Positions 2,654 to 32,000 of a stretch of 32,000 bases of DNA are shown in pieces (the first letter of the stretch is position 1; every line of letters begins with the position of its first letter). The stretch covers positions 1 through 32,000 of the forward strand of contig JAWCFL010000014.1 of assembly GCA_038858525.1 (NCBI GenBank). The letters are read 5' to 3'. Origin of the DNA: Candidatus Jordarchaeales archaeon. Its GTDB lineage: Archaea > Asgardarchaeota > Jordiarchaeia > Jordiarchaeales > Freyrarchaeaceae. A program made the position numbers and the translations under genes. The notes below the pieces were generated by a model. That model was given only the letters and a program-made list of their open reading frames with translations, did no database searches and was not told the origin of the DNA.

Positions 2654-4096
2654 TTAGGCCACCACCCTCGTCGGCATATAGACGAACTCGTCTCTCGGAA
2701 CCTCGATGAGCCCCATGACTCCGGGGTTCATTATGCCATGTGGGTCGAACACTTTCTTTATGGCTCGCATATATTTTATAGTGTCGCCATGTTCAAGCTC
2801 CACCAGGCTTGCCTTGGTCACACCGAGTCCGTGTTCAGCTGACAGCGTTCCGCCATACTTCTTGACCACGATCTCTGCGAGTCTTCTAGCGAACTCCGCT
2901 CCGGCTCTTCTATCCTCTTCCTTCCAGGGATTTATCGCTGTTCCAAGATGGATGTTCCCGTCACCTATGTGTCCGAATATCACCATTAGTCTACCTTGGC
3001 TTTGCGCCGTCGCCTTCAGCTCCCGGACGGCCTCGGGTATTCTCCCTATAGGGACTGCGAAGTCCTGTATGTTGTTTAGAGGTATGTTTTCCCCTCTCAG
3101 CTTGGCTAGCATGTTGGCGAGCGTATGGCGTAGCCTCATCAGCTCCTCAATTCTTTCAGCGTCTGTCGTGTATATAACCTTCTGGGCGCCCTTCTCCTCG
3201 CATATCTTCTTAACCATCCTGCTCTCTTCCTCAACGGTCCCCTCACTATAACCATCGTTCTCGATAAAGAGTAGTGCCTCTCCATTCGGTAGCTTCTCCT
3301 CAAGAACGTTGTTTATGATCATTATGCATATGTCGTCGAGAAGCTCCATAGCTGACGGAAGAATTCCTCTCCTCATGATCTCAACGGTTGCTTCAAGCGC
3401 CTGCTCTAGCTTCTGAAAAACGGGGATGGTTAACCCGTAATAGCGAGGTTTAGGCGTGATCTTTAGTATTACCTCGGTGAAGACGCCCAGCGCCCCCTCA
3501 GACCCAACGAATAGCTTAGTCAAGTTTAACCCTGAAGAAGACTTCCAAACTCTCCCTCCAGTCCTAATAATTCTTCCTCCCGGCAGGACAACTTCTAACC
3601 CAAGCACGTGGTCAACGGTCGCCCCGTACTTCAGGGCCCTAATCCCACTAGCGTTATTAGCAACCATCCCTCCAACCGTGCAGGCTATGGCTGAACCCGG
3701 GTCCGGCGGGAAAACATACCCGAGCTTTCCAAGCTCCCTGTTAAGCTCATCGTAAATCACGCCAGGCTCCACAACAGCAACCCTGTCCTCAAGGTCGATC
3801 TCCTTTATTTTATCCATCTTGCACATGTCTAAGACCACACCTCCCTTAACTGGTACCGCCTGCCCGCTTAAACTCGTCCCAGCCCCCCTAGGAACTATCG
3901 GAACCCTGTTCTCATTCGCCCATCTGAGTATTTCTGCGACCTCTTCTCTGCTTTCTGGTCTCGCGACGGCGGCCGGCATGCTCATCCTCATCGAGGCATC
4001 CATACTGTAAGCGTAAAGGTCTGCGATCTCAACGCTCACATCGTCCTCTCCTACGACGCCCGCCAGAAACCGGTAAATCTCCTCTCGACTTAACAT
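2654..4096 (-). CDS. FAD-linked 2-hydroxyacid oxidoreductase (GlcD / D-lactate dehydrogenase family)
   Basis: Motifs PRGAGTSLSG, PPDPGS, GGMVANNASG, GSEGALG, GHIGDGNIH and AEHGLG. Substrate cannot be determined from sequence. Confidence 0.92.
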   Translation of the reverse strand: MLSREEIYRFLAGVVGEDDVSVEIADLYAYSMDASMRMSMPAAVARPESREEVAEILRWANENRVPIVPRGAGTSLSGQAVPVKGGVVLDMCKMDKIKEIDLEDRVAVVEPGVIYDELNRELGKLGYVFPPDPGSAIACTVGGMVANNASGIRALKYGATVDHVLGLEVVLPGGRIIRTGGRVWKSSSGLNLTKLFVGSEGALGVFTEVILKITPKPRYYGLTIPVFQKLEQALEATVEIMRRGILPSAMELLDDICIMIINNVLEEKLPNGEALLFIENDGYSEGTVEEESRMVKKICEEKGAQKVIYTTDAERIEELMRLRHTLANMLAKLRGENIPLNNIQDFAVPIGRIPEAVRELKATAQSQGRLMVIFGHIGDGNIHLGTAINPWKEEDRRAGAEFARRLAEIVVKKYGGTLSAEHGLGVTKASLVELEHGDTIKYMRAIKKVFDPHGIMNPGVMGLIEVPRDEFVYMPTRVVA

Positions 4097-4211
4097 GCTT
4101 TGAAGCAGCCTCCTAACTCATTTAACGTTTAAACAATAAACGGCGCTTTAAGATATACTTTTCCGGAAATAGCGACCTGAGAAACAGCGCGGAACTCTCC
4201 GCCTTCCTCCG

Positions 4212-4224
4212 TTTATTATATATA
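4212..4224 (+). promoter_or_regulatory. TATA-box-like element upstream of hdrA
   Basis: TTTATTATATATA lies about 55 nt before the GTG start, in the divergent spacer. Confidence 0.5.
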
Positions 4225-4278
4225 CTACCTGGCTTTTCTGTTTGCTTGAGCTGGGAAGCTGAACACGGAGGCAGGTGC

Positions 4279-6237
4279 GTGAAGCCACGTATAGGTGTCT
4301 ATGTTTGCCACTGCGGCACTAACATTGCTGGTGTCGTGAACGTTGAAGAGGTAACTAATTATGCTGCCACCCTTCCGGACGTCGTCGTGGCAAGGGACAT
4401 GATGTATACGTGCTCTGACCCAGGTCAGAACACGATAAAGGAGGACATAGAGAAGCATGGCTTAAACCGTGTTGTCATAGCTGCATGTTCTCCAAAGATG
4501 CACGAGAACACTTTCAGGAAGACGCTCGCGTCAGCCGGACTTAACCCTTACCTCTTGGAGATAGCAAACATAAGGGAGCAGGTTTCATGGGCTCACTTCA
4601 GGGAAAGAGATAAAGCCACCGAGAAGGCGAAGGTGCTCGTTAAAGCCGCTGTAGCTAAAGCGAGACTCCTTGAGCCATTAGAGAAAAAGGAGATGCCGGT
4701 TGAAAGGTCCGTCCTTGTAATAGGCGGCGGAGTGGCAGGCATACAGGCTGCATTGGACTTGGCTGAGGCCGGCCTAAAGGTTTACCTCGTCGAGAAGTCC
4801 CCCAGCATAGGGGGGCACATGGCGCAGCTCAACAAAACCTTCCCAACCATAGATTGCTCCGCATGCATCTTGACCCCGAAAATGGTTGATGTTGCGAACC
4901 ACCCCAACATAACACTACTAGCCTACAGTGAAGTGGTGAAAGTTGAGGGATACGTTGGCAACTTCGAGGCGACAATACTCAGGAAGGCGCGCTACGTGGA
5001 TGAGGACCTTTGCGCTGGGTGCGGTGCCTGCGCGGACGCTTGCCCCAGAAAGGTTCCAAACGAGTTTGATGTTGGCCTCGGCAAGAGAAAAGCGATATAT
5101 GTGCCATTCCCCCAAGCGGTCCCCCTCAAATACACAATAGACCCTGCTAGCTGCCTCTACATGAAGTACGGGCGCTGCAAACTATGCGTTAAAGCGTGCC
5201 CGCGTGGAGCGATAAACTTCGATCAGAAAGACGAGGAAGTAAAAGTGAGGGTTGGCGCCATAATAGTCGCCGTTGGATTCAAAGTGTTTGATGCTAGGAA
5301 AATACCGTCCCTAGGATATGGCAAGTACAAGAACGTTATCACTGGGATAGAGCTTGAAAGGCTGTCGAACGCGTCGGGGCCAACGGGGGGAGTGGTTTTA
5401 ACGGCTTCAGGAGAGAGGCCCAAGAGCGTGGCATTCATACAGTGTGTCGGCTCAAGGGACCTGAATCATAACAGCTGGTGTTGCAGAATAGGGTGCATGG
5501 CCACTCTTAAGCAAGCCTTCCTCATAAAGGAAGAAGACCCGGATGCTGAAGTCTACGTATGCCATATAGACATGAGAACAGCTGGAAAGGGATACGAAGA
5601 GTTCTACAGGAGACTCAGGGAGATGGGTGTACGCTTCATACACGGCGTCCCATCTGAGATATTCGAAGACGCCGATGGGAAGCTCAGGTTCAACGTGTTC
5701 GATCAGACAACCGGACATATGATCGAGCTAAAAGTTGACATGGTCGTGCTCCAGACAGGACTAGAGCCTGCAGAGGACGTCGAGAAGCTTCAGAAGATGC
5801 TGAACGTCTCGTTGAGTCCTGAAGGTTTTTTCTTGGAAGCTCACCCGAAGCTTCAACCGGTTGAGGCAAGCACGCGGGGAATATTCTTTGCGGGATGCTG
5901 CCACAGCCCGAAAGACATAGCCGAAACAGTAGCACACGCGAGCGCCGCTGCGGCCAAAGCTATAACTCTTCTCTCCAAGGGGAAGGTGGACGTCGAACCA
6001 TTAACCGCCTCAGTAAACCCTGAAATCTGCTCGGGATGTGAAGTTTGCACCGGCATATGTCCCTACAGGGCGATACAGCTAATGGAGTACGAGGGGCGAA
6101 GAAGAGCCAAGGTGATCGATGTCCTCTGCCAAGGTTGCGGGGCGTGTGTCGCTGCTTGCCCAAGCAACGCCATCGAAATGAAGGGCTTCACGGAAAAGCA
6201 GATCCTAGCTCAAATAGACGCTCTAACAGGAGGGTGA
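4279..6237 (+). CDS. hdrA: Heterodisulfide reductase subunit A (FAD, Fe-S)
   Basis: Motifs VYVCHCGTNIAG, AACSP, GGGVAG, KTFPTIDCSACIL, four CxxCxxCxxxCP-type ferredoxin motifs and FAGCCHSPKDI. GTG at 4279 follows GGAGG; the track start is TTG 4246. Confidence 0.96.
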   Translation: MKPRIGVYVCHCGTNIAGVVNVEEVTNYAATLPDVVVARDMMYTCSDPGQNTIKEDIEKHGLNRVVIAACSPKMHENTFRKTLASAGLNPYLLEIANIREQVSWAHFRERDKATEKAKVLVKAAVAKARLLEPLEKKEMPVERSVLVIGGGVAGIQAALDLAEAGLKVYLVEKSPSIGGHMAQLNKTFPTIDCSACILTPKMVDVANHPNITLLAYSEVVKVEGYVGNFEATILRKARYVDEDLCAGCGACADACPRKVPNEFDVGLGKRKAIYVPFPQAVPLKYTIDPASCLYMKYGRCKLCVKACPRGAINFDQKDEEVKVRVGAIIVAVGFKVFDARKIPSLGYGKYKNVITGIELERLSNASGPTGGVVLTASGERPKSVAFIQCVGSRDLNHNSWCCRIGCMATLKQAFLIKEEDPDAEVYVCHIDMRTAGKGYEEFYRRLREMGVRFIHGVPSEIFEDADGKLRFNVFDQTTGHMIELKVDMVVLQTGLEPAEDVEKLQKMLNVSLSPEGFFLEAHPKLQPVEASTRGIFFAGCCHSPKDIAETVAHASAAAAKAITLLSKGKVDVEPLTASVNPEICSGCEVCTGICPYRAIQLMEYEGRRRAKVIDVLCQGCGACVAACPSNAIEMKGFTEKQILAQIDALTGG

Positions 6238-21043: not shown

Positions 21044-22051
21044 TTACTGTGTCGCTTTGAACGAGAACCAGACTGGATCGAATTCAAGCTTCATTTTGTT
21101 CTCGTCAAACCATCTTTTAAGTTCGCTAAAGGTCGGGAAACCCTTCGCCCCATGTATCCTTATAAAGAGGTCTACGGGGTATATTCTCTTCGAAATAGTA
21201 CTTTCAACACCGAATATGAATCCGTCCGGCTTAAGGTAACTTTTAAGCTCGCCGACCGCTCTAACAGGGTCGTCAGTCCAGTGGAGGACGTGAGACACGA
21301 ACACAGCGTCGTACTGTCCTTCTAATGGTTTTTCCTTTTTCAAGCTGAAGAAGTGTATGGGAAGCCCGACAGCCACGTCCTCTTTCGCCACCTCGAGCAA
21401 TCCCTCTGAGACGTCGCATCCGTCAACTTCAAAATCATCAACTACCCCAGAAAGACTGTTATAAAGCTGAACCGTACCTGCTCCGCCACCGCATCCATAA
21501 TCTAAAATCCTGAAAGTACCTCGACGTTTTCTAGCTTCATCCACGAGCTTCGCGAACCTTATCGCCTTCTCCCTCTGAACCCTGTAAAATTCTCCCTCAA
21601 GAGCTATGCTCCAATGCGCCCTTAAATCGCCTGTGTCGAATTCTCCAGCCGACTTGCCTGAAAGCCTTTCCCTAATAACTCTTATGGTCGGCTCTATGAA
21701 TGTCCCAAAGGCCTCCCTAAGAACAGGATGCATTTCACTTATAGCGTCCGGGAAAGGGCTTTTTGGAGGTTGCTTTAAAAGTGTGAGTTTTCCCTCCTCA
21801 AGCTTAACAACGCCTTCTTCATCCATGATGTTTAATAACTCCACGAGAAGCTGGTGGTCAACGTATCCCTCCGCCTTCATAAAAGCGCCGAGATCTACGT
21901 TTTCTCCAATCTGAAGCTTGCTTAAGGCGGGAGCCAGAGAATCCACCACTATGAACCTCATATACTTGTTTACCTCATTAAGAATCTTCAATTGTCTGAG
22001 AAAGAGGTGAGGAGACTTCAACACCTCATAGAGGAAAGCAACCTTACTCAT
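21044..22051 (-). CDS. Class I SAM-dependent methyltransferase with N-terminal helical/wHTH-like region
   Basis: Motifs ILDYGCGGG, DGCDVS, YDAVFVSHVLHW and YLKPDG. Confidence 0.88.
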   Translation of the reverse strand: MSKVAFLYEVLKSPHLFLRQLKILNEVNKYMRFIVVDSLAPALSKLQIGENVDLGAFMKAEGYVDHQLLVELLNIMDEEGVVKLEEGKLTLLKQPPKSPFPDAISEMHPVLREAFGTFIEPTIRVIRERLSGKSAGEFDTGDLRAHWSIALEGEFYRVQREKAIRFAKLVDEARKRRGTFRILDYGCGGGAGTVQLYNSLSGVVDDFEVDGCDVSEGLLEVAKEDVAVGLPIHFFSLKKEKPLEGQYDAVFVSHVLHWTDDPVRAVGELKSYLKPDGFIFGVESTISKRIYPVDLFIRIHGAKGFPTFSELKRWFDENKMKLEFDPVWFSFKATQ

Positions 22052-22066
22052 TTTCTTCCATCCCGA

Positions 22067-22942
22067 TTACTTTATTGAGGCTACGCCTCGGATACTCATC
22101 CTCCGGACGAGGTCTAGAAAAGCAAGTGGGTCCTCGTGGAAACTTAGAACTTCCAGTAGCATTCTCTCCTCATATTTTTTCACTTCCTCTACTGCTTCCC
22201 TGCCGAAGAGTGACTCCGCCGCCCTCAGTGTCTCTTTCATTAAGGAGAACGTCTTATCGGCGTTTTCAGTTATAAATACGAACAGCTTCTTGTAGCGCTC
22301 AACGTCTCTCTCTGGAAGGGACTTATAAAGGATGCCTATGACGCCAAAGGGAGTATGCTTCGACTTAGTGGAAATATAGATCAGTATTTCGTCGCTTGCC
22401 TCAACTACCTCTCCCAATGTTGTCTCCCACGAGTTAATGAGCCCAATAACGTTCACGTTTATGTTCACGTTTGACCAGAAGCGGCGGTTAACCCTATCGT
22501 ACACTATGTAGCCCGCGACCCCCTCCGGTAGCTTCCTGGCTTCTCCGGGCATCTCTTTCCAAGTCATTTTTTCTAGAATCGAGATAACCTGCTCCCTGAA
22601 CTTTGAGAAACGCTCCACACTACCATCCCATTCTTCTAGATGATAGGCCGTCTCGAAAGCCCACGCTATTTCAACTGCAAAGCGCTTGTAATAGTCAACA
22701 TCGTCCCCATGATCTAACAGCAAAACAACGAGAACATGTCTAAGTGAGGCGACAAGAAAAATAGCATCTGTCGTCTTAAATGAGCTGAATTCTCCTATTT
22801 TTAGCTCCTCAGCAAGTCCTTCTAACGCCCTCAACATACCGCTAAGAAGAACGTCGTCAGAGATTACCTTTGAACGTTCAAGATCAACAACCAAGAGGGG
22901 AACACCAGAAATCCTATGAATCACCAAGACCTTTCTTATCAT
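22067..22942 (-). CDS. Longin-like domain fused to a second roadblock/profilin-like domain
   Basis: The N-terminal part ISGVPLL...DDVLLSGMLRALEGLAEEL...F..AY....W.G.V..F..F is longin-like. The second domain opens with LPEGVAGYIVYD. ATG 22942; the track start is 22954. Confidence 0.72.
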   Translation of the reverse strand: MIRKVLVIHRISGVPLLVVDLERSKVISDDVLLSGMLRALEGLAEELKIGEFSSFKTTDAIFLVASLRHVLVVLLLDHGDDVDYYKRFAVEIAWAFETAYHLEEWDGSVERFSKFREQVISILEKMTWKEMPGEARKLPEGVAGYIVYDRVNRRFWSNVNINVNVIGLINSWETTLGEVVEASDEILIYISTKSKHTPFGVIGILYKSLPERDVERYKKLFVFITENADKTFSLMKETLRAAESLFGREAVEEVKKYEERMLLEVLSFHEDPLAFLDLVRRMSIRGVASIK

Positions 22943-23058
22943 ACCGAGGACCAACCAACGACGTTAGATACTTAATAAAAATAGTTAAAATAGTTAAAGG
23001 ATATATTTTTTGTCATTAATCTATTACGTGTAGCCTTTCAAGTTGTTTCGAATCTTAG

Positions 23059-23676
23059 CTAGAAAAATATGAATGGCTCTAATTTTCCTTTAAAATAACG
23101 TTTCATAACCTTCTTTATCCTTTTCTCGTCGATCATCTTTCTGTATCCTAGCTTTCTTAACTTTTCCTCCCATTTCACTTGTTCCGGTGGCACCTCGCTT
23201 GGCGCCACTTTTTTAGGGTAAGCGAAAAAGTAATGTCGCTTTCTGGGGTCATAGTTAAAGTAAAAGAACCCTCCATCTTTGAAGAACACCGCTACAGAAG
23301 TGACAAGGTATTTTCCATGATAACCTGGATTGTTCACCAGCTTAAGTTCTTCCGCCATCTTCTTAAGGCGTTTATTCTCCTCCCATATTGTCTTCATCAG
23401 ATCTGCTGTTTCATAAAGATCTTTAAGATAGAAGCGTAAAGTCTCTCCTTTATATTCTGTCACAGTGAATTTGGGAACCCATCTATCCGTGACCGCCCCC
23501 TTGAAGTGAGGCTGCATAGGGGACTTAACAACGATCTCTATATGGTCTATATCTATCGCCTTGCGCCCTATATCTTCGTCTACGGGAATCCTGAACAAGT
23601 ATTCCAGAATCTGAGCGAGTGACTGAGCCTCTTCCTCCTTAACTTCTCTTTCTGCCTCAATAGACAATTCATTCAC
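23059..23676 (-). CDS. Hypothetical protein (205 aa)
   Basis: Long ORF with host-like E/K-rich composition and GAGG before the GTG start. No family recognised. Confidence 0.75.
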   Translation of the reverse strand: MNELSIEAEREVKEEEAQSLAQILEYLFRIPVDEDIGRKAIDIDHIEIVVKSPMQPHFKGAVTDRWVPKFTVTEYKGETLRFYLKDLYETADLMKTIWEENKRLKKMAEELKLVNNPGYHGKYLVTSVAVFFKDGGFFYFNYDPRKRHYFFAYPKKVAPSEVPPEQVKWEEKLRKLGYRKMIDEKRIKKVMKRYFKGKLEPFIFF

Positions 23677-23852
23677 CTCAAAAAGTAAAACTTAATAGAC
23701 TCTATAGTTCACCGAGAAACTGTTCTAGGGAAATGATTGAAAGTTGGAATACATAAATTTAACCATAAGGTGTCTCTCAGCTTGGCAAAGTGGCAGACGA
23801 TGTTTTCAAATATTTGCGTAGCTTTTGTTAAAGAAGCTTTAGAAACGATGCT

Positions 23853-24194
23853 TCAGTCTTTCTTTTTTGCCTGCTTATAGTATATTCTCATTTGACGTTT
23901 GCAGTTGAGGCATGTGATCGTGAGGTGTGCTTCCCTATTTACTCTTAGTCGCACTCTGCAATTGACTCCGGGCCAAAGATAGGTTCCACAGTGGCGGCAT
24001 ATCCTGCGCCGGAGAGCCCTTGGCAATCTAACTTTTGCCCTAGCACTTATTGCCCTAGCAAGGTTAACGTATCTCTGGGCAAGGCCTTGATCTTCCGGGA
24101 AGACTTCTTCTGCAAGCTTCATTAGTATTCTTATTCTGCTGATGGCGATTCCTTTAACTTCCTCTATGCTAGGTCTCCGTTTAAGCCGAACCAT
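23853..24194 (-). CDS. rnp4: Ribonuclease P protein component 4 (Rpp21)
   Basis: Motifs A..RI.IL...A, LAQRYV.LA..IS, RICRHC...L.PG.NCRVR and TCLNC. Likely ATG 24194; the track start is GTG 24242. Confidence 0.93.
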   Translation of the reverse strand: MVRLKRRPSIEEVKGIAISRIRILMKLAEEVFPEDQGLAQRYVNLARAISARAKVRLPRALRRRICRHCGTYLWPGVNCRVRLRVNREAHLTITCLNCKRQMRIYYKQAKKKD

Positions 24195-24291
24195 CGCTAC
24201 GCCCCCGAATGACGAAAGTTTTTTCGCCAGTTTTTCACTCACTCTTCCTGTTGCAATCAGATTTCTCCTTCATACAAAAGGAACAGGAGGA

Positions 24292-24981
24292 TTGAAATTG
24301 CTTTTTCTAATTCTCGCTGAGTCGGCTCTGGAGACTATGCCTGCTAGCCTTCAGAACGAGCCCGCTGTTCGTAGCTTGGCGAAAAGGAGAAAGAAAGCTC
24401 CTTCAAGACTCATTCTTGATTCCTCACTTTTCCCCAGTTTAGTGAGGAAACTCCCGATGGGGGAGAAAAGAGGGCGCCCTGACATAATTCACATCTCTCT
24501 TCTCTGCGCTTTGAGGACCCCCCTCAGCATGGAAGGGCACTTAAAAGTTTATGTTCACACTCTGGATGATAAAATTATTGATATTGACCCCACAGTGAGG
24601 TTACCGAGGAACTATAACCGCTTCATAGGACTAATAGAGCAACTTTACGAACACAGTCAGGTTCCTCCGAACTCAAAACCCCTCTTAGCGCTCAAAAACA
24701 TGTCGCTCCCCGCTCTTCTGAGGGAAATAAACCCTGAAAAAACAATCCTTTTCTGCGAGGAAGGTGTGAGAGTGGATCTTAACGATTACATGAGAAACTT
24801 GTCATCACTAAGCAGAGTAGTAGCTATGGTTGGCGGCTTTCCTCACGGCTCGTTCTCGAGTCAGACCGAATCCCTGGCGGACGATAAAATATCCATCTAC
24901 GATAGGCCTCTCGAAGCCTGGACGGTCGTTTCAAGGGTAATATACTCTTATGAGCTGGCAATATTCAGGAAAACCGAGTGA
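24292..24981 (+). CDS. nep1: Nep1/Emg1 SPOUT rRNA pseudouridine N1-methyltransferase
   Basis: Motifs LAESALE, EKRGRPDIIH, RLPRNYNRFIGL.EQL and GGFPHG. TTG 24292 follows GGAGG; the track start 24142 overlaps rnp4 and is too long. Confidence 0.93.
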   Translation: MKLLFLILAESALETMPASLQNEPAVRSLAKRRKKAPSRLILDSSLFPSLVRKLPMGEKRGRPDIIHISLLCALRTPLSMEGHLKVYVHTLDDKIIDIDPTVRLPRNYNRFIGLIEQLYEHSQVPPNSKPLLALKNMSLPALLREINPEKTILFCEEGVRVDLNDYMRNLSSLSRVVAMVGGFPHGSFSSQTESLADDKISIYDRPLEAWTVVSRVIYSYELAIFRKTE

Positions 24982-25050
24982 AAAATAAACATAGAACAGC
25001 TGGTACGATACGAAGAAGTCATGTTCATTGGGAGCCGCATCACTCCCCCC

Positions 25051-25788
25051 TTATCGTGAGAGGGCTGCGATAGCTGCTGAGAAAGTTTCCTTTGCTTCTT
25101 CGATCGATGCGATGCCAACAGCTACTGAAGAAATGTTTCTAAGAGAAAATAAATATTCCATTGCTTCTCTCGGATTTATACTTCCTGCGGCAAGGGGCTT
25201 CATCGCTATTATTTTAACACCGCTTTCTTTCACCATCTCCATGAACTCCTCACCCCTCACACCCCCCATCATGTAGCCAGCTTTGTTCAGCGGCATCATT
25301 AACACGTCTACTTCGAGCTCCTCGATAATGAGCGGAATCGTTCTAGCTGGGTTATGCGTGACGACCCCCGCAAGGTACCCCTCATTCTCTATTCGCTTAA
25401 TCCAAGCTCTATTCTCCTCCATGTTCAGTTTGTCTGTTTGCTCCCCGTGCAAAAGCACAGCAACCGTGTCGAACTCTGAAAGGTGTTTCAGGGCTTGGCT
25501 CGGCATGTCGAAGGGCAAACTACCGACGACTTTGAGGCGGACCCCCGTCATCTCTTCAGCTTCCCTCACCGCTCTCCCTATTTGAGGGTAAGCAACGAGC
25601 TGGACTCCATTAACACCAATTTCTATGCAACCTGCCACCAGCTCGGTTATCTTTGAAGGATTCCTAAAAAAGCGCTCGTAGTACTTGTATGCCCTTACGC
25701 CGAACTGTCCCGCTCCCAAGAAAGGCGACGTGCCGAGCAGCACTCGTGGCAGCTCTCTTCCCTTAACATTTATTGATGGTATCCTCAT
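25051..25788 (-). CDS. Aldo/keto reductase-like TIM-barrel protein
   Basis: Motifs LPRVLLGT, LLHG, G.LAGV.TH, MMP.N..G and IIAMKPLAAG. The usual AKR catalytic Asp and Lys are not evident. ATG 25788; the track start is TTG 25794. Confidence 0.7.
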   Translation of the reverse strand: MRIPSINVKGRELPRVLLGTSPFLGAGQFGVRAYKYYERFFRNPSKITELVAGCIEIGVNGVQLVAYPQIGRAVREAEEMTGVRLKVVGSLPFDMPSQALKHLSEFDTVAVLLHGEQTDKLNMEENRAWIKRIENEGYLAGVVTHNPARTIPLIIEELEVDVLMMPLNKAGYMMGGVRGEEFMEMVKESGVKIIAMKPLAAGSINPREAMEYLFSLRNISSVAVGIASIEEAKETFSAAIAALSR

Positions 25789-25790
25789 TT

Positions 25791-26402
25791 TCAATACTCT
25801 TTCTTCCCTGCCCTTTTGAGTTCTTCCCTCATCAGGTTCCTAATAATCCTGTACATCTCCCCTTTGAAAACCGGAGGAACTATTTTTAGCCTGTCAACTA
25901 GCCTCTCGACCAGCTCTTCAACTATGTTTTCCTCACTCATAACTTCTATGCCAAGGACTACGCGGACGCCCACCTCTTCCACAGTAGACTTAACAACAGA
26001 CCTTATCACTGCGCCTATCACGCTTTCAGGGTCTATGTAATAGGGGAAGCGGTTGTAATCGTATATCTTTATGATACTTAAGGTCTCAGATATACTCTCG
26101 CTGTACCATTCAAGGCTACTTGCCTTAAGCCCGAACTTCTCGGCGAACTCCTCCTTCGAGACAGGGTTAGGGAACGAGAAAGGATGTCTACTCGCTAGGT
26201 ATATAGCTGCAACGTACGCCGCCTCTCTCTCCTTCGGAAGACCGGCCGCCTCGACATACCTTTTAAGGAGCGCTGAAGCATAAACGGAGAGCGCCTCCTC
26301 GACGTTGTTTTTGATGAAAAACTTGTATGCTTCCTTGACGAGCTTCGCCTCCTCCTCACCTAAAAGAAAAATGTTCTTTTCCGGAAATGAGTTGTAAAAC
26401 AT
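25791..26402 (-). CDS. Protein with a single cyclin-box / TFIIB-repeat-like domain
   Basis: ASALLKRY...GLP...AYVAAIYLASR....P.SKEEFAEKFGLKASSL resembles the TFIIB repeat pattern A..IL......G..P...AAA.LY.A......T..EVA...GV...T. Confidence 0.55.
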   Translation of the reverse strand: MFYNSFPEKNIFLLGEEEAKLVKEAYKFFIKNNVEEALSVYASALLKRYVEAAGLPKEREAAYVAAIYLASRHPFSFPNPVSKEEFAEKFGLKASSLEWYSESISETLSIIKIYDYNRFPYYIDPESVIGAVIRSVVKSTVEEVGVRVVLGIEVMSEENIVEELVERLVDRLKIVPPVFKGEMYRIIRNLMREELKRAGKKEY

Positions 26403-26417
26403 TTTCCTTCCTCCCGG

Positions 26418-26957
26418 CTACTTTTGAGTTGCTTGTTCGTATGCTTTCTGGAAGGACCATCTTGCCGCCTCCCTTACCCTGTTTAACCTGTGTTGGTCCC
26501 TGTAATTCAAAATGACAATCTCTCTTATCACGTCACCTGAAACATTGACCTCGTATTTCATCCGTTCATCCTCAGATATTTTTCCTTCATCAACAAGTCG
26601 ATTGTCCTCCTCCACCATGCTAGCTAAAACCTTCCCGATAAGAAACGAAGCTATTGGAGGAGAACCGTGATAAACCTTCAAATCAGCTGAGGGCACTATT
26701 CTGATCCTGTCCTTTTCAACATGTAACTCGGCGAGCGTCGTTTTCCCGTCCTTAGACAGTAAAGGTATGACTCTCCTCTCCTCCGCTTTTTTCTCCATGA
26801 CTTCAGCTGCTGATTTGAAGCTTGCCTCCTTCAACTCTCTCTCGACAAGCTCTCTGATCTTCTTCAAAACTTCAAGCTCGTAGCTTCTTCTATCTATCTC
26901 CTCATCAAGGTATGCCTTAAGCTCGGCGAGAACCTCTGCATCCACTACTAACACCAC
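26418..26957 (-). CDS. Hypothetical protein, N-terminal coiled coil plus alpha/beta domain
   Basis: GTG start follows GGAAGG; first gene of a tight 3-gene run (15-bp gap to the next gene). Confidence 0.8.
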   Translation of the reverse strand: MVLVVDAEVLAELKAYLDEEIDRRSYELEVLKKIRELVERELKEASFKSAAEVMEKKAEERRVIPLLSKDGKTTLAELHVEKDRIRIVPSADLKVYHGSPPIASFLIGKVLASMVEEDNRLVDEGKISEDERMKYEVNVSGDVIREIVILNYRDQHRLNRVREAARWSFQKAYEQATQK

Positions 26958-27046
26958 CTTCCTAAAGGCATCAAAAGCACAGACCTCCTACTTTAATAAG
27001 AGGTCTTCCCCTAAAAATAAATCGGTTGAAAAGGAGGGAAGACTGC

Positions 27047-27727
27047 TTGAAGGAAGGCGAATACGCAGTCTTCAAGTGTCCTAACTGTGGCTGTTACACG
27101 TTTGCTCCAACATCTCAGAAAAGCAGGTTCTGCTCCATGTGCGGAAAAATAGTTAAAGTAGACTTGCTTCATGCCGAAATAACAAATGATGCCAGAAGGG
27201 CGAGTGAGCTGGTTAGATCCCGCAACGCTAAAAAAGCCCCTCCAGAACTGAAAAAAGCTCTCAGAGAGAGTTTCACCGAAGCTGAGAAGAAAACACCGAA
27301 AAAAGGAGCTAGAACCTCATCCCTACTTATGAAAATCCTTATGGAACACTGTTCCGAGGAGGTAACTCTAGATGAGCTGGAAAAACTGTGCACAGACTAC
27401 GGATTAGACTGTGAATGGGTTAAGGAGAAACTGCCACAACTGGCACTAAAAGGTGTAGTGTTCTTCCCTTCACCTTGGACCGTTAAATGCACAGCTCCCT
27501 CGCTCCACAGGCCAGAGAACCAATCCGAAGAAGTGTCAAGTCAAACCACTAACTTAAACAAGTTAGTGATAGACGCTTTCTCGGTGCCGACTTCCAGAGT
27601 GAAAGTTGTTGAGTGGTTCGCCGAGAAAGGATACTCTCCAGAGAAAGTGGATGAAATCATCGACAAACTGCACAGAAGCGGTCTCATAATAGAAGAGAAG
27701 CCCGGGATATTTAAAAAAGTCGAATAG
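27047..27727 (+). CDS. DUF1922-like Zn ribbon followed by two winged-helix-like repeats
   Basis: Zn ribbon FKCPNCG..SRFCSMCG; wHTH-like segments ending EKLPQLALKGVVFFP and DKLHRSGLIIEEKPG. TTG 27047 follows GGAGGG; the track start is 27026. Confidence 0.7.
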   Translation: MKEGEYAVFKCPNCGCYTFAPTSQKSRFCSMCGKIVKVDLLHAEITNDARRASELVRSRNAKKAPPELKKALRESFTEAEKKTPKKGARTSSLLMKILMEHCSEEVTLDELEKLCTDYGLDCEWVKEKLPQLALKGVVFFPSPWTVKCTAPSLHRPENQSEEVSSQTTNLNKLVIDAFSVPTSRVKVVEWFAEKGYSPEKVDEIIDKLHRSGLIIEEKPGIFKKVE

Positions 27728-27733
27728 CCCTTT

Positions 27734-28408
27734 TTACTCCCTAAGGAACCTAGGCTTCGGCTTAACGGGCTTAAAGTGTTCCCCAAACTTCTCAGCTAGC
27801 CTTAAAGCGGCGACAAGCTTATTCTCAGTTGGTGTAAAGGAGTAAATAAGATGCGGCTTTTCACCCCTCAGCGAAACCCTAATTATCACATCGTTTAATC
27901 TCTCAACCTCATCTTGAATATCACCCTCAAGAAGTGATGATGCCGCCTCACTGTCTGACGCCCACACTTCTAGTCTGCCGATTACTGCAACTTTCTTCAT
28001 CTTCTCATTTAAGCCATCTTTCTCTGGTCTGATTATCTCCATCGAGAAACGCGGTCTCGCTTTGAAGTTCGCTTCGCAAAGGAAAACATCATCGTGAGGC
28101 TTGAACTTAGATACTATGTGGTGTAACAAGTTCTCTCTGTTCACAAGGTAGAGAGTGATATCCAAGCTCTCCAGAGGAGCATCATTAGACTTGCACCTTA
28201 CTTTAAACCCGCTGAGCCTATACCTCCTCTTCTCAATCACCCTGAACCTCTCTCTAACCCACTCATTAACCAGAGTATAGTATTTTTCCAGAAGAACCTT
28301 ATTCTTCCTCAATCCTAACGAGTAAGACACGATAAATGCTAACATAAAGGCGAAAAGCAAAATCGCCCCCAAAGTTCCTATGAAATCGATAGTCCCCGAC
28401 GTGGACAA
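27734..28408 (-). CDS. Single-pass membrane protein resembling CCDC47/DUF1682
   Basis: A TM helix followed by LAFIVSYSLGLRKNKVL, then ITLYLVNRENLL...KPHDD. Similarity is to the human sequence as recalled. Confidence 0.6.
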   Translation of the reverse strand: MSTSGTIDFIGTLGAILLFAFMLAFIVSYSLGLRKNKVLLEKYYTLVNEWVRERFRVIEKRRYRLSGFKVRCKSNDAPLESLDITLYLVNRENLLHHIVSKFKPHDDVFLCEANFKARPRFSMEIIRPEKDGLNEKMKKVAVIGRLEVWASDSEAASSLLEGDIQDEVERLNDVIIRVSLRGEKPHLIYSFTPTENKLVAALRLAEKFGEHFKPVKPKPRFLRE

Positions 28409-28423
28409 CGCGACACCCCAAAT

Positions 28424-29170
28424 TTAATCTATAACCTTCCCAGTAAATGGATTCATTTTTTTCTTACAGACAGGGCAAGCAAGCATTCCCGGCTTCCACT
28501 TTATCCACTCACCGCAGGCAGGACACATTAATTCGAGTTCCCCCTCCACATCTAATTCTGGCGGAATTTTCAGAAGCTCTTCTTCCTCTTTTTTTATCTT
28601 TTCCTCCTTTTTCTTCCTAACGGATTCAGACACACCGAAGCTTACCTGCCTAGCACCCCGCTTGCCCCCCGTCTTCCCCCTTCCCTCATCTGGATTTATC
28701 ACTTCAAGTATCCTACCGAACACCCCCTGATGCCTTCTCTCCTCTCTTTTTTCCTGTGGGATTTCGGGGGACTGAGCACTCCTCTTAAATTCCTCCACTA
28801 GAAGGATTATACGACCAATCTGTGACTCTGCAAGTCCCTTAATGATCACCTTGTTGCAACTCAGGCTCGAGAAGCGGCTGTCTACGTGATACTCCAACTC
28901 AAGCTCCTTAGAGTCCCTCTGAGCCCTAACATCACCCACATTCTCCAAGAAGAAACTCAGAGCGGCGACCTCTCTTCCGCCCCTTTTAAGGTTCTTCGCG
29001 AAGGATGCAGGCTTACCGTGGAATATCAAGCGAATGTTAGTCACGTAAAGACTACCCTCCTCCGTTTCCCGTCCTTCTCCATCCCCAATTTTAACTCCCT
29101 CGGAACTCAACAAAACTTTTTCCCCACGCATGAGGTGAGGAAACTCGCTTCCCTCTATCAACAAAGCCAC
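28424..29170 (-). CDS. PH/GRAM(GLUE)-like N-terminal domain, charged linker and C-terminal C4 Zn finger
   Basis: N-terminal L..GE.V......GV.I.DG......G.LYVTN.RLIF; C-terminal CPAC-x12-CPVC. Confidence 0.65.
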   Translation of the reverse strand: MALLIEGSEFPHLMRGEKVLLSSEGVKIGDGEGRETEEGSLYVTNIRLIFHGKPASFAKNLKRGGREVAALSFFLENVGDVRAQRDSKELELEYHVDSRFSSLSCNKVIIKGLAESQIGRIILLVEEFKRSAQSPEIPQEKREERRHQGVFGRILEVINPDEGRGKTGGKRGARQVSFGVSESVRKKKEEKIKKEEEELLKIPPELDVEGELELMCPACGEWIKWKPGMLACPVCKKKMNPFTGKVID

Positions 29171-29350
29171 CCGTTCATGTTCTCAAGTCTAAATGCCAAG
29201 AAACAAAATATAAAGTTAGAGTTTCAAACATTAAATTCTGCTAGCCTTTACACGCAAAATCTAATCTAACGCAACAGTAAACTACAGTTAACAAAGCAAT
29301 TAAAGTCGCTCTTCCCCTTACTAGAATGGGCTTCCCTCTGAAACTTTCCC

Positions 29351-30130
29351 CTATTGTGTAACGCTTAACATTTTGCCTGGCCACTTTGTCTTTAGAATCT
29401 TAATTTTTAACGGCTCTTCCACGTACAAGGTTACGCTGTGGTTTTCCATTATAAATCGCCTGTTTATCTCGTTGATCGTGCTTCCGTTATACATGCAGAC
29501 ACAAACCGTCTTCTTAAGCTTAGTTTTATCAATTTGCTCCTCGAAAAAGAATGGTTTTGTTGCGCGTCTTCGTGACCTCAAATACGAAGCATTGTCAAAG
29601 GTAATCAGTAACCCTTGAAATCCTCGTTCAAGCGAGTTCCTTTCAAGCCTCGCAACCTCTTCCACCTGATAGTGAACGCTTGGATGAGCGTCATAAAAGG
29701 AGCCTAGGTCTCCAAGCAGAACCCCTTGGCCTTCAACGTTAACTCTAGGCTCCCCAAGAACCATCTGAACACACATATACCCTTTCTCAAGAGCATCAAT
29801 GATAAGGTGCCTAAGAAGCAACTCCACTCCCCTAGACTCCCCTAGAAGAGCCACGTGACTGGGAGGAATCAAACCCCCCTTCAACATTAAGTCAACATCA
29901 TCTAGCCTTGTCTGAACCGTATATGGGAGACTTCTCGCGATCTCCTTCAACTTCTCACATATAACCACATAAAGGCCTGAACCAAGTTCATCACACCAGT
30001 AACCACAACATATAGGGACAGAGCCATCAAGCATGCATCTTGACGCTTTCCCCTCAGCCTGAACCCAGAACCTACAAGGCTTATTAGGCGAAAACCTGAG
30101 ATACCTCACTAGGAAATCCCAGTTACTCAA
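29351..30130 (-). CDS. KaiC/RecA-like domain with degenerate Walker A and a Cys-rich N-terminus
   Basis: TRLDDVDLMLKGGLIPPSHVALLG matches the T.I..LD..L.GG.P.....L.G entry of KaiC/RadA, but GxxGxGKT is absent. TTG start follows GGGGAGG. Confidence 0.6.
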   Translation of the reverse strand: MSNWDFLVRYLRFSPNKPCRFWVQAEGKASRCMLDGSVPICCGYWCDELGSGLYVVICEKLKEIARSLPYTVQTRLDDVDLMLKGGLIPPSHVALLGESRGVELLLRHLIIDALEKGYMCVQMVLGEPRVNVEGQGVLLGDLGSFYDAHPSVHYQVEEVARLERNSLERGFQGLLITFDNASYLRSRRRATKPFFFEEQIDKTKLKKTVCVCMYNGSTINEINRRFIMENHSVTLYVEEPLKIKILKTKWPGKMLSVTQ

Positions 30131-30417
30131 AGTCCTCCCCTGCCTTACCCCATCAGAAAAAACACAATAATCATTTTTAAATTTTTTTTAGTAAAAATAT
30201 CTCACGTTCTTCCATTATTTAACTTCTTTTTTTTATAAAAAGAATCTCATTTGCATATTTTTTTAAAATATCATTCAATACAACGGTTAAGCCATTTTAA
30301 AGCATGCTCAGTTTAACATACTGCCACCACTTTAATCTTTAAAAGTCTTTAATAACTTTATTTTTTCTCCATGACTTGAAACATTTAGAGTAGGTCTGCT
30401 GTTGAGAGGAGGATATT

Positions 30418-30822
30418 TTGGGCTTCCTGTCCAGAGAGAAAAAGCGGCTTTCTACAGTTAAAATTAGGAGGGCGCTTGTTGATGGTTTACTTGAAGTTTC
30501 AAGGGAAGTCCATCCTAGAGAATTTATCGGTTTACTGAGAGCAGAGAGGGGAGTTATATCCGAGGTAATTATACCCCCATTCAGCATTTATGGTCTGGGT
30601 GAATCGTCGTTTTCGCCATATGATCTCCCGATAGACCCCTCATTGGTTGGCAGCGTCCACAGCCATCCATCAGGAGACCCGCGCCCATCAAAACAAGACG
30701 TGAACGTAGCATTCAGTTTTGGATTCGTACACCTTATAATCACATATCCCTACTCCTGCCATGAGAACATATACGCCTATGACAAAGAGGGAAAACCACT
30801 AAAACTCATAATAATCGAATAA
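30418..30822 (+). CDS. JAMM/MPN+ (JAB domain) metalloprotease
   Basis: Upstream Glu in HPREFIG and intact HSH-x7-S-x2-D (HSHPSGDPRPSKQD). TTG start follows GAGGAGG. Confidence 0.92.
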   Translation: MGFLSREKKRLSTVKIRRALVDGLLEVSREVHPREFIGLLRAERGVISEVIIPPFSIYGLGESSFSPYDLPIDPSLVGSVHSHPSGDPRPSKQDVNVAFSFGFVHLIITYPYSCHENIYAYDKEGKPLKLIIIE

Positions 30823-31415
30823 GTCACCAAAGCCTAAAAATCGGATCCAACCAGTTTTGTATGCTGCTTTATGGATGTTCATGGAACTTTGTTCCTACGA
30901 GAAATTAAAAGCATCATTTAGGTAGCCTATATGCGGAGGACTTAACAGGCCAACAGCACATGTTTAAAGAAAAAACTTTTTCTAAATAGAAGCCGTCTGG
31001 TGGCTACTTTTAGCACTGATGGGGCATCGATGCGCTGCCTTTAACTATCGGCGGCAAAAGCCTCAAAAACAAAATGGAAGGGAATGGATGAACTATGAAT
31101 TCACAGCTAAAAGTCGTTAAGTGATTAAAAAAGCATGTGGGCAAATCAAAGGAGAAGAGAAAATAAAATAAAAATAAAATGTAGCTGTTCGTTTCTTGAA
31201 TTTCATTAGCGCTTTAATGATTTTCGCCGTTCGCTTTAACTAATTTTAAATTCCAAGTTTTTCGTTGTTAGTCTTCGGAAAGGAATAATTTTTAGTCTAA
31301 ATTGTGTCGCGTTTTTGGGTGTGCTTCATTTTTTGAAACTGTTTCTGTTTTTAATAGTGGAAAAAATTAAAATTGACTAGGTGAATTGTAGGTAACGATG
31401 TTCGTTGCTGAAAGG

Positions 31416-31431
31416 CGGTAAGCTTTATATT
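31416..31431 (+). promoter_or_regulatory. BRE/TATA-like promoter of rps19e
   Basis: cggtaag followed by cTTTATATt, about 50 nt upstream of the start; SD GGAGG lies just before the start. Confidence 0.55.
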
Positions 31432-31479
31432 TGTCTTAGGTTTGTCTCTTAGCAAAGGGCTAAAGGAGGACGAAGCCGT

Positions 31480-31938
31480 TTGGTGACGGTTTACGATGTT
31501 CCAGCATGGGACTTGATAAAGGAGACCGCAAGCATTCTCAAGGAGGAGTACCCCTCCATCTCGCCTCCTCCGGGGTCTCGCTTCTGGAAAACGGGTGTGC
31601 ACAAGGAACACCAGCCGACGCAGGAAGACTGGTGGTACATAAGATGCGCTGCTATTCTCAGGAAGCTTTACATTTATGGCCCCGTAGGCGTCTCTCGTCT
31701 CAGAAGTGCCTACGGCGGAAGGAAGAGGAGAGGCGTTAAGCCAGAGCACTTTACTAAGGGAAGCGGCGCCATTATCCGCAGGGCTCTTCAGCAGTTAGAG
31801 GCTGCGGGACTAGTGGAGAAGACTGAGAATAGGGGCAGACGTATAACTAGTGAAGGCCGCTCTCTGCTCGACAGGATCGCTTACAAGGTGAGTTTAAGGT
31901 TAAAGAAGGAAATGCCCGAAATCAAAAGTTACCTTTAA
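31480..31938 (+). CDS. rps19e: 30S ribosomal protein S19e
   Basis: Motifs TVYDVP, KTGVHKE, DWWYIRCAAILRK, GPVGV.RL..AYGG and GSG.IIR.ALQQLE.AG.V. Confidence 0.98.
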   Translation: MVTVYDVPAWDLIKETASILKEEYPSISPPPGSRFWKTGVHKEHQPTQEDWWYIRCAAILRKLYIYGPVGVSRLRSAYGGRKRRGVKPEHFTKGSGAIIRRALQQLEAAGLVEKTENRGRRITSEGRSLLDRIAYKVSLRLKKEMPEIKSYL

Positions 31939-32000
31939 TATAATCTCTTTCATCTAATTTCATTAGCTGTCTCCTTGTAAAGCCGGGGTGGTTAAGGATG

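Follow-up and report, generated by a model that had tools for sequence, protein, structure and literature searches.

A single-pass CstY-family membrane protein with a CCDC47-like core in a Jordarchaeal genome

We analyzed the first 32,000 nucleotides of contig JAWCFL010000014.1 (assembly GCA_038858525.1) from a Candidatus Jordarchaeales archaeon, referred to here as the window, with a focus on one minus-strand open reading frame (ORF) of 224 codons plus stop that starts with TTG and encodes a predicted membrane protein. An initial annotation, made from the sequence alone, had described this protein as CCDC47-like and as a minimal ancestral subunit of the PAT (protein associated with translocon) complex. 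The first part of this description holds: genuine homology to the membrane-helix-plus-globular core of CCDC47 is well backed by the sequence profile, by the topology and by a structure model built without templates. Homology and a single-transmembrane-segment architecture further identify the focal protein as a member of the CstY family, which in Thermoproteota is encoded beside a CstA transporter and an ArsA-type ATPase. The features of the locus are collected in Table 1.

Table 1. Genes, protein segments and signals at the focal locus (positions in the window)
Feature	Position	Strand	Remarks
CCDC47-core-like (CstY-type) membrane protein ORF, 224 aa	27734..28408	-	TTG start 28408..28406, stop 27736..27734
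Shine-Dalgarno-like motif GGGGTG	28414..28419	-	6 nt 5' of the TTG start, inside the 15-nt spacer; read from sequence
Single transmembrane helix, residues ~9-31, sole hydrophobic segment	28316..28384	-	Hydropathy scan and flanking charges; AlphaFold2 helix 3-54
Juxtamembrane G-x3-N motif (G32, N36)	28301..28315	-	Nearly invariant in the family; HMMER alignment to the C. thermophilum CCDC47 motif
Cytoplasmic alpha/beta globular domain (predicted), residues ~52-213, CCDC47/TtfA-type fold	27770..28255	-	Invariant R91 and D107; conserved P185-H186
Short basic C-terminal tail, last 17 residues	27737..27787	-	Low-confidence model; position of a long charged helix in CCDC47 and in Heimdallarchaeal relatives
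Upstream gene, 248 aa: PH/GLUE-like N-terminus, Lys/Glu-rich linker, C-terminal CPxC...CPxC zinc ribbon	28424..29170	-	
259-aa protein with weak MEDS-domain match (E 0.021)	29351..30130	-	Next gene upstream
Prok-JAB/JAMM peptidase (E 1.1e-8)	30418..30822	+	Near the 259-aa gene; placement kept in L071
DUF1922 zinc ribbon and C-terminal winged-helix protein	27026..27727	+	Convergent with the focal gene; position kept in f1 and f2

A 208-residue form of the focal protein is also on record and would truncate its only hydrophobic segment. The 224-residue product is supported by the Met that close homologues carry at the same start position, by the GGGGTG motif and by the spacing of 15 nt between the stop codon of the upstream gene and the focal start. 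In line with the initial annotation, which had proposed a single-pass topology, we observe one hydrophobic segment (residues 9-31), and since the net charge of its flanks is -1 before and +3 after the helix, we predict an external N-terminus and a cytoplasmic C-terminal domain. Across 61 aligned family members, G32, N36, R91 and D107 are invariant or nearly so. The initial annotation was likewise right that a long C-terminal coiled coil is missing, with the focal protein ending in a basic tail of 17 residues; it stops 11 residues past the last helix of the domain, and its final 9 residues have a predicted local distance difference test score (pLDDT) below 50. Metatranscriptome contigs from one sediment sample cover 599 of the 675 ORF bases at 98-99.6% identity, and none of them bridges the junction with the upstream gene. 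Three further metatranscriptomes, examined as raw reads, gave none on this stretch, which has no bearing on expression.

The sole Pfam match of the focal protein is PF07946 (CCDC47, formerly DUF1682), with an E-value of 0.0047 and 16.6 bits, spanning residues 16-103 against model positions 6-101. The first two sequence blocks that the initial annotation had aligned to human CCDC47 (residues 23-39 and 84-107) fall in this match. The same family is the top match in all eight close homologues, which come from Freyarchaeota/Jordarchaeales metagenome genomes (best E-value, 3e-06), and orthologues from a sister family of the same order reach 29-36.4 bits over positions 7-206, a range that takes in the membrane helix and the whole globular domain. 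One orthologue from the same family scores 26.5 bits, or 27.9 bits if neighboring stretches in frame are included, and the scores of the Jordarchaeial clade as a whole lie between 14.6 and 36 bits. With the curated gathering cutoff at 27.7 bits, the DUF1682 threshold is passed by the sister-family orthologues and is not reached by the focal protein itself (16.6 versus 27.7 bits). Matches above this cutoff occur in 13 of 400 genomes of the phylum (Asgardarchaeota), and none of 14 control genomes has a match. Among ten operon-linked members of the wider family described below, seven have no match to PF07946, with the best reaching 20 bits.

Direct links to CCDC47 sequences of known structure are fainter. 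Searches of the PDB sequences using phmmer and hmmsearch, with the focal protein and a profile of its close family, found nothing. Profiles of the broader family reach only the CCDC47 of Chaetomium thermophilum (PDB 9I78 chain 4, which bears this name from its depositors), and here HMMER aligns the membrane helix and the G-x3-N-R/K motif. The L-x2-R block and the third block also align with this chain in collinear order, although they are not significant alone. A profile of the long Heimdallarchaeal forms gave only a chance match to a G protein-coupled receptor in the PDB, and the same ~300-residue profile, followed up to an E-value of 10, retrieved archaeal proteins only and no eukaryotic match. 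A search aimed at longer relatives was likewise negative. We found no paper that joins CCDC47 with Asgard archaea or DUF1682 with archaea, none on PF07946/IPR012879, and none that draws a line from CstY, or from an archaeal protein of any kind, to CCDC47. The structural papers on CCDC47 that we consulted describe it as conserved across eukaryotes without mention of a prokaryotic relative, with only the Oxa1-type insertase being traced to archaea.

With respect to structure, we modeled the focal protein with AlphaFold2 without templates (pLDDT 74.6), and among solved structures CCDC47 resembles this model most closely, in keeping with the initial annotation. Foldseek places 7tm3 chain 4 first (E-value, 2.5e-7) and finds further significant matches in 9i78 chain 4 and 6w6l chain 7. 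The independent method VIA-align ranks 7tut_4 first at Z 14.7 (190 residues at 3.1 Å, covering chain residues 135-396) and 9i78_4 at Z 12.9, with unrelated folds at 8.5 or below. We take 7TM3/7TUT chain 4 and 6W6L chain 7 to be CCDC47, in agreement with the residue numbering. Identity to CCDC47 in the structural alignments is low, at ~11-15%, and small alpha/beta proteins, among them type III secretion chaperones, follow at Z 6-8. Mycobacterial TtfA (PDB 6T84) aligns to the focal model at Z 14.0, with 151 residues at 3.5 Å. A shape search of the ESM Atlas returned a eukaryotic CCDC47 cluster at a template modeling score of 0.68 and TtfA at 0.61. At the sequence level, TtfA gave no match to the focal protein in the Pfam scan, of which the searched copy may not include PF28092, and we found no paper mentioning TtfA together with CCDC47.

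Relatives of ~300 residues from Heimdallarchaeal genomes extend this comparison to the C-terminal end. Some of them are already labeled "DUF1682 domain-containing protein" at NCBI, and they match positions 8-320 of the 326 in PF07946, above the curated cutoff. A model of a long form (pLDDT 94.1) aligns with rabbit CCDC47 residues 135-475 at Z 18.9, with fungal CCDC47 at Z 17.8 and with TtfA at Z 11.3. Since the overall root mean square deviation of the alignment to CCDC47 is 19.5 Å, it is not a rigid-body fit, and the helices are placed differently. In CCDC47 the region of the added C-terminal helix makes up the connector and latch helices (PMC12572126), and the focal protein has nothing comparable. 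As a side observation on these loci, the long-form gene in Heimdallarchaeaceae is immediately preceded by a gene for a Ras/Rab-like small GTPase (L008:786-1355, L010:2463-3023 and L013:787-1353); of these three loci, L008 and L010 also have a DegV-family gene on the downstream side.

The focal protein belongs to a family that is far wider than these CCDC47-like members. A profile search of 1.84 billion representatives returned 57 relatives, all of them 152-255 residues long. The family profile matches 112 of the 400 Asgardarchaeota genomes, spread over 32 of 85 genera, as well as 38 of 301 genomes sampled from a phylum that holds a "Thermoprotei archaeon". Per-genome E-values in the latter phylum range from 1e-70 to 1e-4, with the members of the archaeal alignment A2 themselves among the strongest and the proteins of cultured species at 1e-9 to 1e-25. 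Exact look-up identified members in Ignicoccus hospitalis, I. islandicus, Fervidicoccus fontis, Pyrodictium delaneyi, Staphylothermus marinus and Desulfurococcus mucosus, and further ones in Aigarchaeota/Nitrososphaerota genomes; all members found in this way are annotated as hypothetical or membrane proteins. We had also considered an Asgard-specific eukaryotic signature protein, a candidate that the members in cultured Thermoproteota led us to reject. Feature and shape look-alikes in the ESM Atlas include bacterial clusters (Chloroflexota, Acidobacteriota and DUF3137) besides TtfA and eukaryotic CCDC47; we treat these as leads rather than proof. The family is present in Thermoproteota and probably also in bacteria. 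A cstA-adjacent member (L022:1468-2154) scores 27.6 bits against the bacterial family DUF3137 (PF11335), above its Pfam cutoff, which suggests that in bacteria DUF3137 represents the C-terminal portion of this domain. The initial annotation had named nesting within a bacterial family unrelated to CCDC47 as a contrary outcome; this is not what we find, since the prokaryotic family at large appears to be related to CCDC47. In f20, the largest taxonomic family of the phylum with 135 genomes, neither the family profile nor PF07946 nor CstA gave a match, and this absence could reflect real loss or divergence past the reach of the profile.

In Thermoproteota, the neighbors of the family gene are an ArsA/Get3-family ATPase (PF02374; E-value, 7e-61), a protein of ~90 residues and the CstA transporter (PF02554). 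The order in five genomes is small protein, ATPase and family member, all on one strand and with overlapping or abutting frames. The same operons were described in I. hospitalis and S. marinus by Castillo and Saier in 2010 as part of cluster 14 (PMC2963123), with the ~90-aa protein, which has a single transmembrane segment (TMS), named CstX and a ~210-aa single-TMS protein named CstY. In our loci the ArsA proteins have 309 aa (I. hospitalis) and 329 aa (S. marinus), the lengths given in that study. CstY, which was also reported from Thermococci, with Thermococcus kodakarensis among the species listed as having a cstA-cstX-arsA-cstY cluster, was proposed to be a non-essential auxiliary subunit and appeared to co-evolve with CstA and ArsA; the paper holds neither a link to CCDC47 nor an experiment on CstY (PMC2963123). 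A Thermoprotei genome carries tandem ArsA-family ATPase genes after cstX (L016:2524-3531 and 3536-4567), recalling the paired ArsA homologues of cluster 15 in the same paper.

Within the phylum, CstA is present in 16 of the 400 genomes, and wherever both genes could be located a family member lies within ~2 kb of it. The family also occurs where CstA is absent, with none of the 4 genomes of f1, the 6 genomes of f2 or the 31 genomes of Heimdallarchaeaceae (f8) carrying CstA, and since these lineages have kept the gene, an independent role is indicated. Some genomes have two copies, one beside cstA and the other elsewhere. The focal genome (2.09 Mb, 92.7% complete) yielded neither CstA nor CstX, which implies that the focal gene works outside the CstA module; none of cstA, cstX and arsA lies within 22000..32000 of the window. 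The candidate role of an accessory subunit of CstA was rejected for the focal protein on the same ground, the genome being without CstA. A single full-length ATPase of the ArsA family (316 aa, carrying a CPFC motif) is encoded on another contig. Because it reaches 330 bits on PF02374, compared with 188-206 bits for the ATPases of the CstA module, it may belong to a different, housekeeping Get3-type clade. This ArsA/Get3-type gene is immediately preceded by a very hydrophobic ORF of 107 aa (L034:2537-2860, minus strand, contig 10), which seems to have three membrane segments and received no family assignment.

Partners known from the eukaryotic system were sought in the same genome. Asterix, the substrate-binding PAT subunit in eukaryotes, was found neither in the window, as the initial annotation had already stated, nor elsewhere in the genome, with the best PF03669 match having an E-value of 0.1 and an internal stop, at the level of noise in bacterial controls. 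A very divergent small partner might still be encoded. A search for TMCO1-like genes did return a result, namely one insertase of the EMC3/TMCO1 family.

To place the focal protein, we removed the near-duplicate rows L006, L009, L011, L012, L014 and L017 and computed a quick maximum-likelihood tree from 65 family members. A clade of 33 rows consists of stand-alone Asgard genes only and includes the Heimdallarchaeal forms as well as the second copies of two-copy genomes (Shimodaira-Hasegawa-like approximate likelihood ratio test support, 84). The Jordarchaeial clade with the focal protein (5 rows, support 99) lies outside this all-Asgard clade and groups weakly with operon-linked sequences (support 68). 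This position is tentative, since an approximately unbiased (AU) test does not reject joining it to the stand-alone clade (P = 0.45).

The closer neighborhood of the focal gene is a cluster conserved across the order. The order of the MEDS-like 259-aa gene, the GLUE/PH-like zinc-ribbon gene, the focal gene and the convergent DUF1922 gene is kept in the same-genus locus L071, is kept save for the 259-aa gene in L072, and is recognizable in f2 with one insertion. The 259-aa gene keeps its place in L071 and in f2 (L073), with no counterpart seen in the other f1 genome (L072). The GLUE/zinc-ribbon gene adjoins the focal orthologue in f1 and is separated from it by one gene in f2; its product shows 27-59% identity across the two families, and the proteins of the f2 cluster show 27-41%. 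The focal gene and this upstream gene form a probable operon. The N-terminus of the upstream protein has a weak match of Vps36-GLUE/GRAM/BBS5 type (E-value, 3.9e-4), below the Pfam cutoff. A complex prediction for this protein and the focal cytoplasmic domain returned a score of 0.00 with a mark of 0.32, which speaks neither for nor against binding.

Taken together, we favor the reading, with a probability of roughly 0.6, that the focal gene encodes a single-pass, stand-alone and tail-less protein of the CstY family, a family homologous to the core of CCDC47, and that the protein would serve multi-pass membrane proteins as an adaptor tethered to the membrane. The short N-terminus would lie outside the cell and the alpha/beta domain of ~190 residues in the cytoplasm, and the membrane helix, the G-x3-N motif and the cytoplasmic domain may together hold a multi-pass membrane protein or its assembly machinery. 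Such a role is suggested by analogy to CCDC47 with Asterix, SND3 and Sec61, to TtfA with MmpL3, and to CstY with CstA and ArsA, with the adaptor having probably been released from the CstA module in the Jordarchaeial lineage. Several points weigh against this reading. The focal score lies below the curated cutoff of PF07946 and comes from the N-terminal 88 residues only, and the broader family profiles reach PDB CCDC47 only at E-values of 0.44 and 1.1. The structure model is of moderate confidence, and with TtfA at Z 14.0 next to CCDC47 at 14.7, the fold alone fails to single out CCDC47. The adaptor mechanism is drawn by analogy only, and the metatranscriptome contigs could stem from contaminating DNA.

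An alternative closer to the initial annotation is that the protein is a proto-PAT or translocon factor, which would sit beside SecYE-beta or the DUF106 (Oxa1-family) insertase and chaperone nascent transmembrane helices in an ancestral version of the CCDC47 role. The homology to the CCDC47 core, the retained EMC3/TMCO1-family insertase, the persistence of the gene in lineages without the CstA module and the CCDC47-like charged C-terminal helix of the Heimdallarchaeal relatives all fit this idea. We nevertheless consider it unlikely, as no Asterix homologue was found in the focal genome, the protein has no counterpart of the latch and connector helices by which CCDC47 is positioned between the exit of the ribosome and Sec61 (PMC12572126), the best tree does not place the focal clade with the Heimdall-type clade, and the oldest recognizable context of the family is a transporter/ATPase operon rather than translocon genes. 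Lacking the connector and latch helices, the protein has no evident means of docking at the ribosome exit in the manner of CCDC47 and would not form a PAT complex in the eukaryotic sense. Of the phrase "minimal ancestral PAT subunit", it is accordingly the homology to the CCDC47 core that we retain. Neither "PAT subunit" nor "ancestral" is supported, given the absent Asterix and helices, a family that is not Asgard specific and a focal clade that lies outside the all-Asgard clade that holds the more CCDC47-like Heimdallarchaeal forms, with the caveat that the data do not reject a placement inside it. The absence of Asterix and of a docking tail, the prokaryote-wide transporter/ATPase context and the tentative clade placement together leave the reading as a minimal PAT subunit unsupported.

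It is also conceivable that the focal protein tethers an ArsA/Get3-type ATPase to the membrane or serves as its receptor, with the cytoplasmic domain binding the ATPase dimer and the single Get3-like ArsA of the genome as the partner. The overlapping or abutting arsA and cstY frames in the five Thermoproteota genomes point this way, as do the reported co-evolution of CstY with CstA and ArsA (PMC2963123) and the full-length ATPase with its CPFC motif in the focal genome. This is distinctly improbable to us, given that the focal gene is unlinked to that ATPase, that the PF02374 scores (330 versus 188-206 bits) hint at a different clade, and that CstA and CstX are absent from the genome. There is a slim chance that the protein is instead the anchor of the presumably co-transcribed GLUE/PH-like zinc-ribbon protein in a Jordarchaeales-specific module, possibly with the MEDS-like protein and the JAB/JAMM peptidase. 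The 15-nt spacer with its Shine-Dalgarno motif, the gene order kept across two families at 27-59% identity of the upstream product, the weak Vps36-GLUE/GRAM-type match and the nearby Prok-JAB gene would agree with such a module. Synteny within one order is weak evidence, however: another gene intervenes in f2, the pairing is absent from the inspected loci of other lineages that carry the family, and the GLUE match is below the Pfam cutoff.

That the protein is no CCDC47 homologue at all, being an independent secretion-chaperone-like alpha/beta fold on an anchor with Pfam matches produced by a hydrophobic helix and biased composition, would account for the 11-15% structural identity, for a focal match made up of the transmembrane region and the first third of the domain, and for the type III secretion chaperones and small alpha/beta proteins at Z 6-8, yet it is very improbable in view of orthologues and Heimdallarchaeal forms that match PF07946 (7-206 and 8-320) above cutoff with 0 of 14 controls, of CCDC47 chains that come out on top in both structural searches, made independently and clearly ahead of the next fold, and of a constant order of membrane helix, G-x3-N motif and domain, followed by the long charged helix in the Heimdallarchaeal forms.

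Returning to the favored reading of a stand-alone adaptor of the CstY family, its main interest lies in a compact prokaryotic family that has the membrane helix, the motif and the fold of CCDC47. The forms are graded, from operon-linked CstY through stand-alone tail-less proteins to Heimdallarchaeal proteins with a C-terminal helix, and this offers a testable route for the evolution of a translocon scaffold. As a speculative extension that we hold to be doubtful, the stand-alone Asgard copies, including the focal one, might scaffold multi-pass protein biogenesis at SecYE-beta or the DUF106 insertase, with CCDC47 having been recruited from CstY, an accessory protein of a transporter/ATPase system, before the eukaryotes and the docking helix having been added in the Heimdall lineage. 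The comparison also gives CstY, and perhaps TtfA and the DUF3137 proteins, a structural relative with a studied role at the translocon of the endoplasmic reticulum. The focal gene itself is mainly one more data point, representing a lineage that keeps the protein after losing, or never having had, the CstA module.

Set against the known systems, the focal protein resembles eukaryotic CCDC47 (calumin) in its single membrane helix of N-out/C-in orientation, and in the juxtamembrane G-x3-N-R/K motif that precedes a cytoplasmic alpha/beta domain. CCDC47 differs in having an acidic lumenal N-terminal domain, where the focal protein has 8 residues before the membrane helix, and in its charged C-terminal helix and its connector and latch helices, the latter two sitting between ribosome exit and Sec61 (PMC12572126), all of which are missing from the focal protein. 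CCDC47 is a subunit of the PAT complex and the multipass translocon, whereas the focal genome is without the Asterix partner. The Heimdallarchaeal forms of ~300 aa (for example, P0066 and P0094) share the membrane helix, the motif and the globular domain and, like the focal gene, are stand-alone in genomes without CstA; unlike the focal protein, they carry a Lys/Glu-rich C-terminal helix of ~47 residues. CstY proteins, such as those of Staphylothermus marinus and Ignicoccus hospitalis, agree with the focal protein in size (~200-230 aa) and in having one membrane helix at the N-terminus, but their genes sit with cstA-cstX-arsA, whereas the focal gene lies outside such an operon, and the focal clade outscores them on PF07946. 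The globular fold is also shared with TtfA (trehalose monomycolate transport factor A, PF28092), an actinobacterial cell-envelope factor that is likewise anchored in the membrane by its N-terminus and acts together with MmpL3, a multi-pass transporter.

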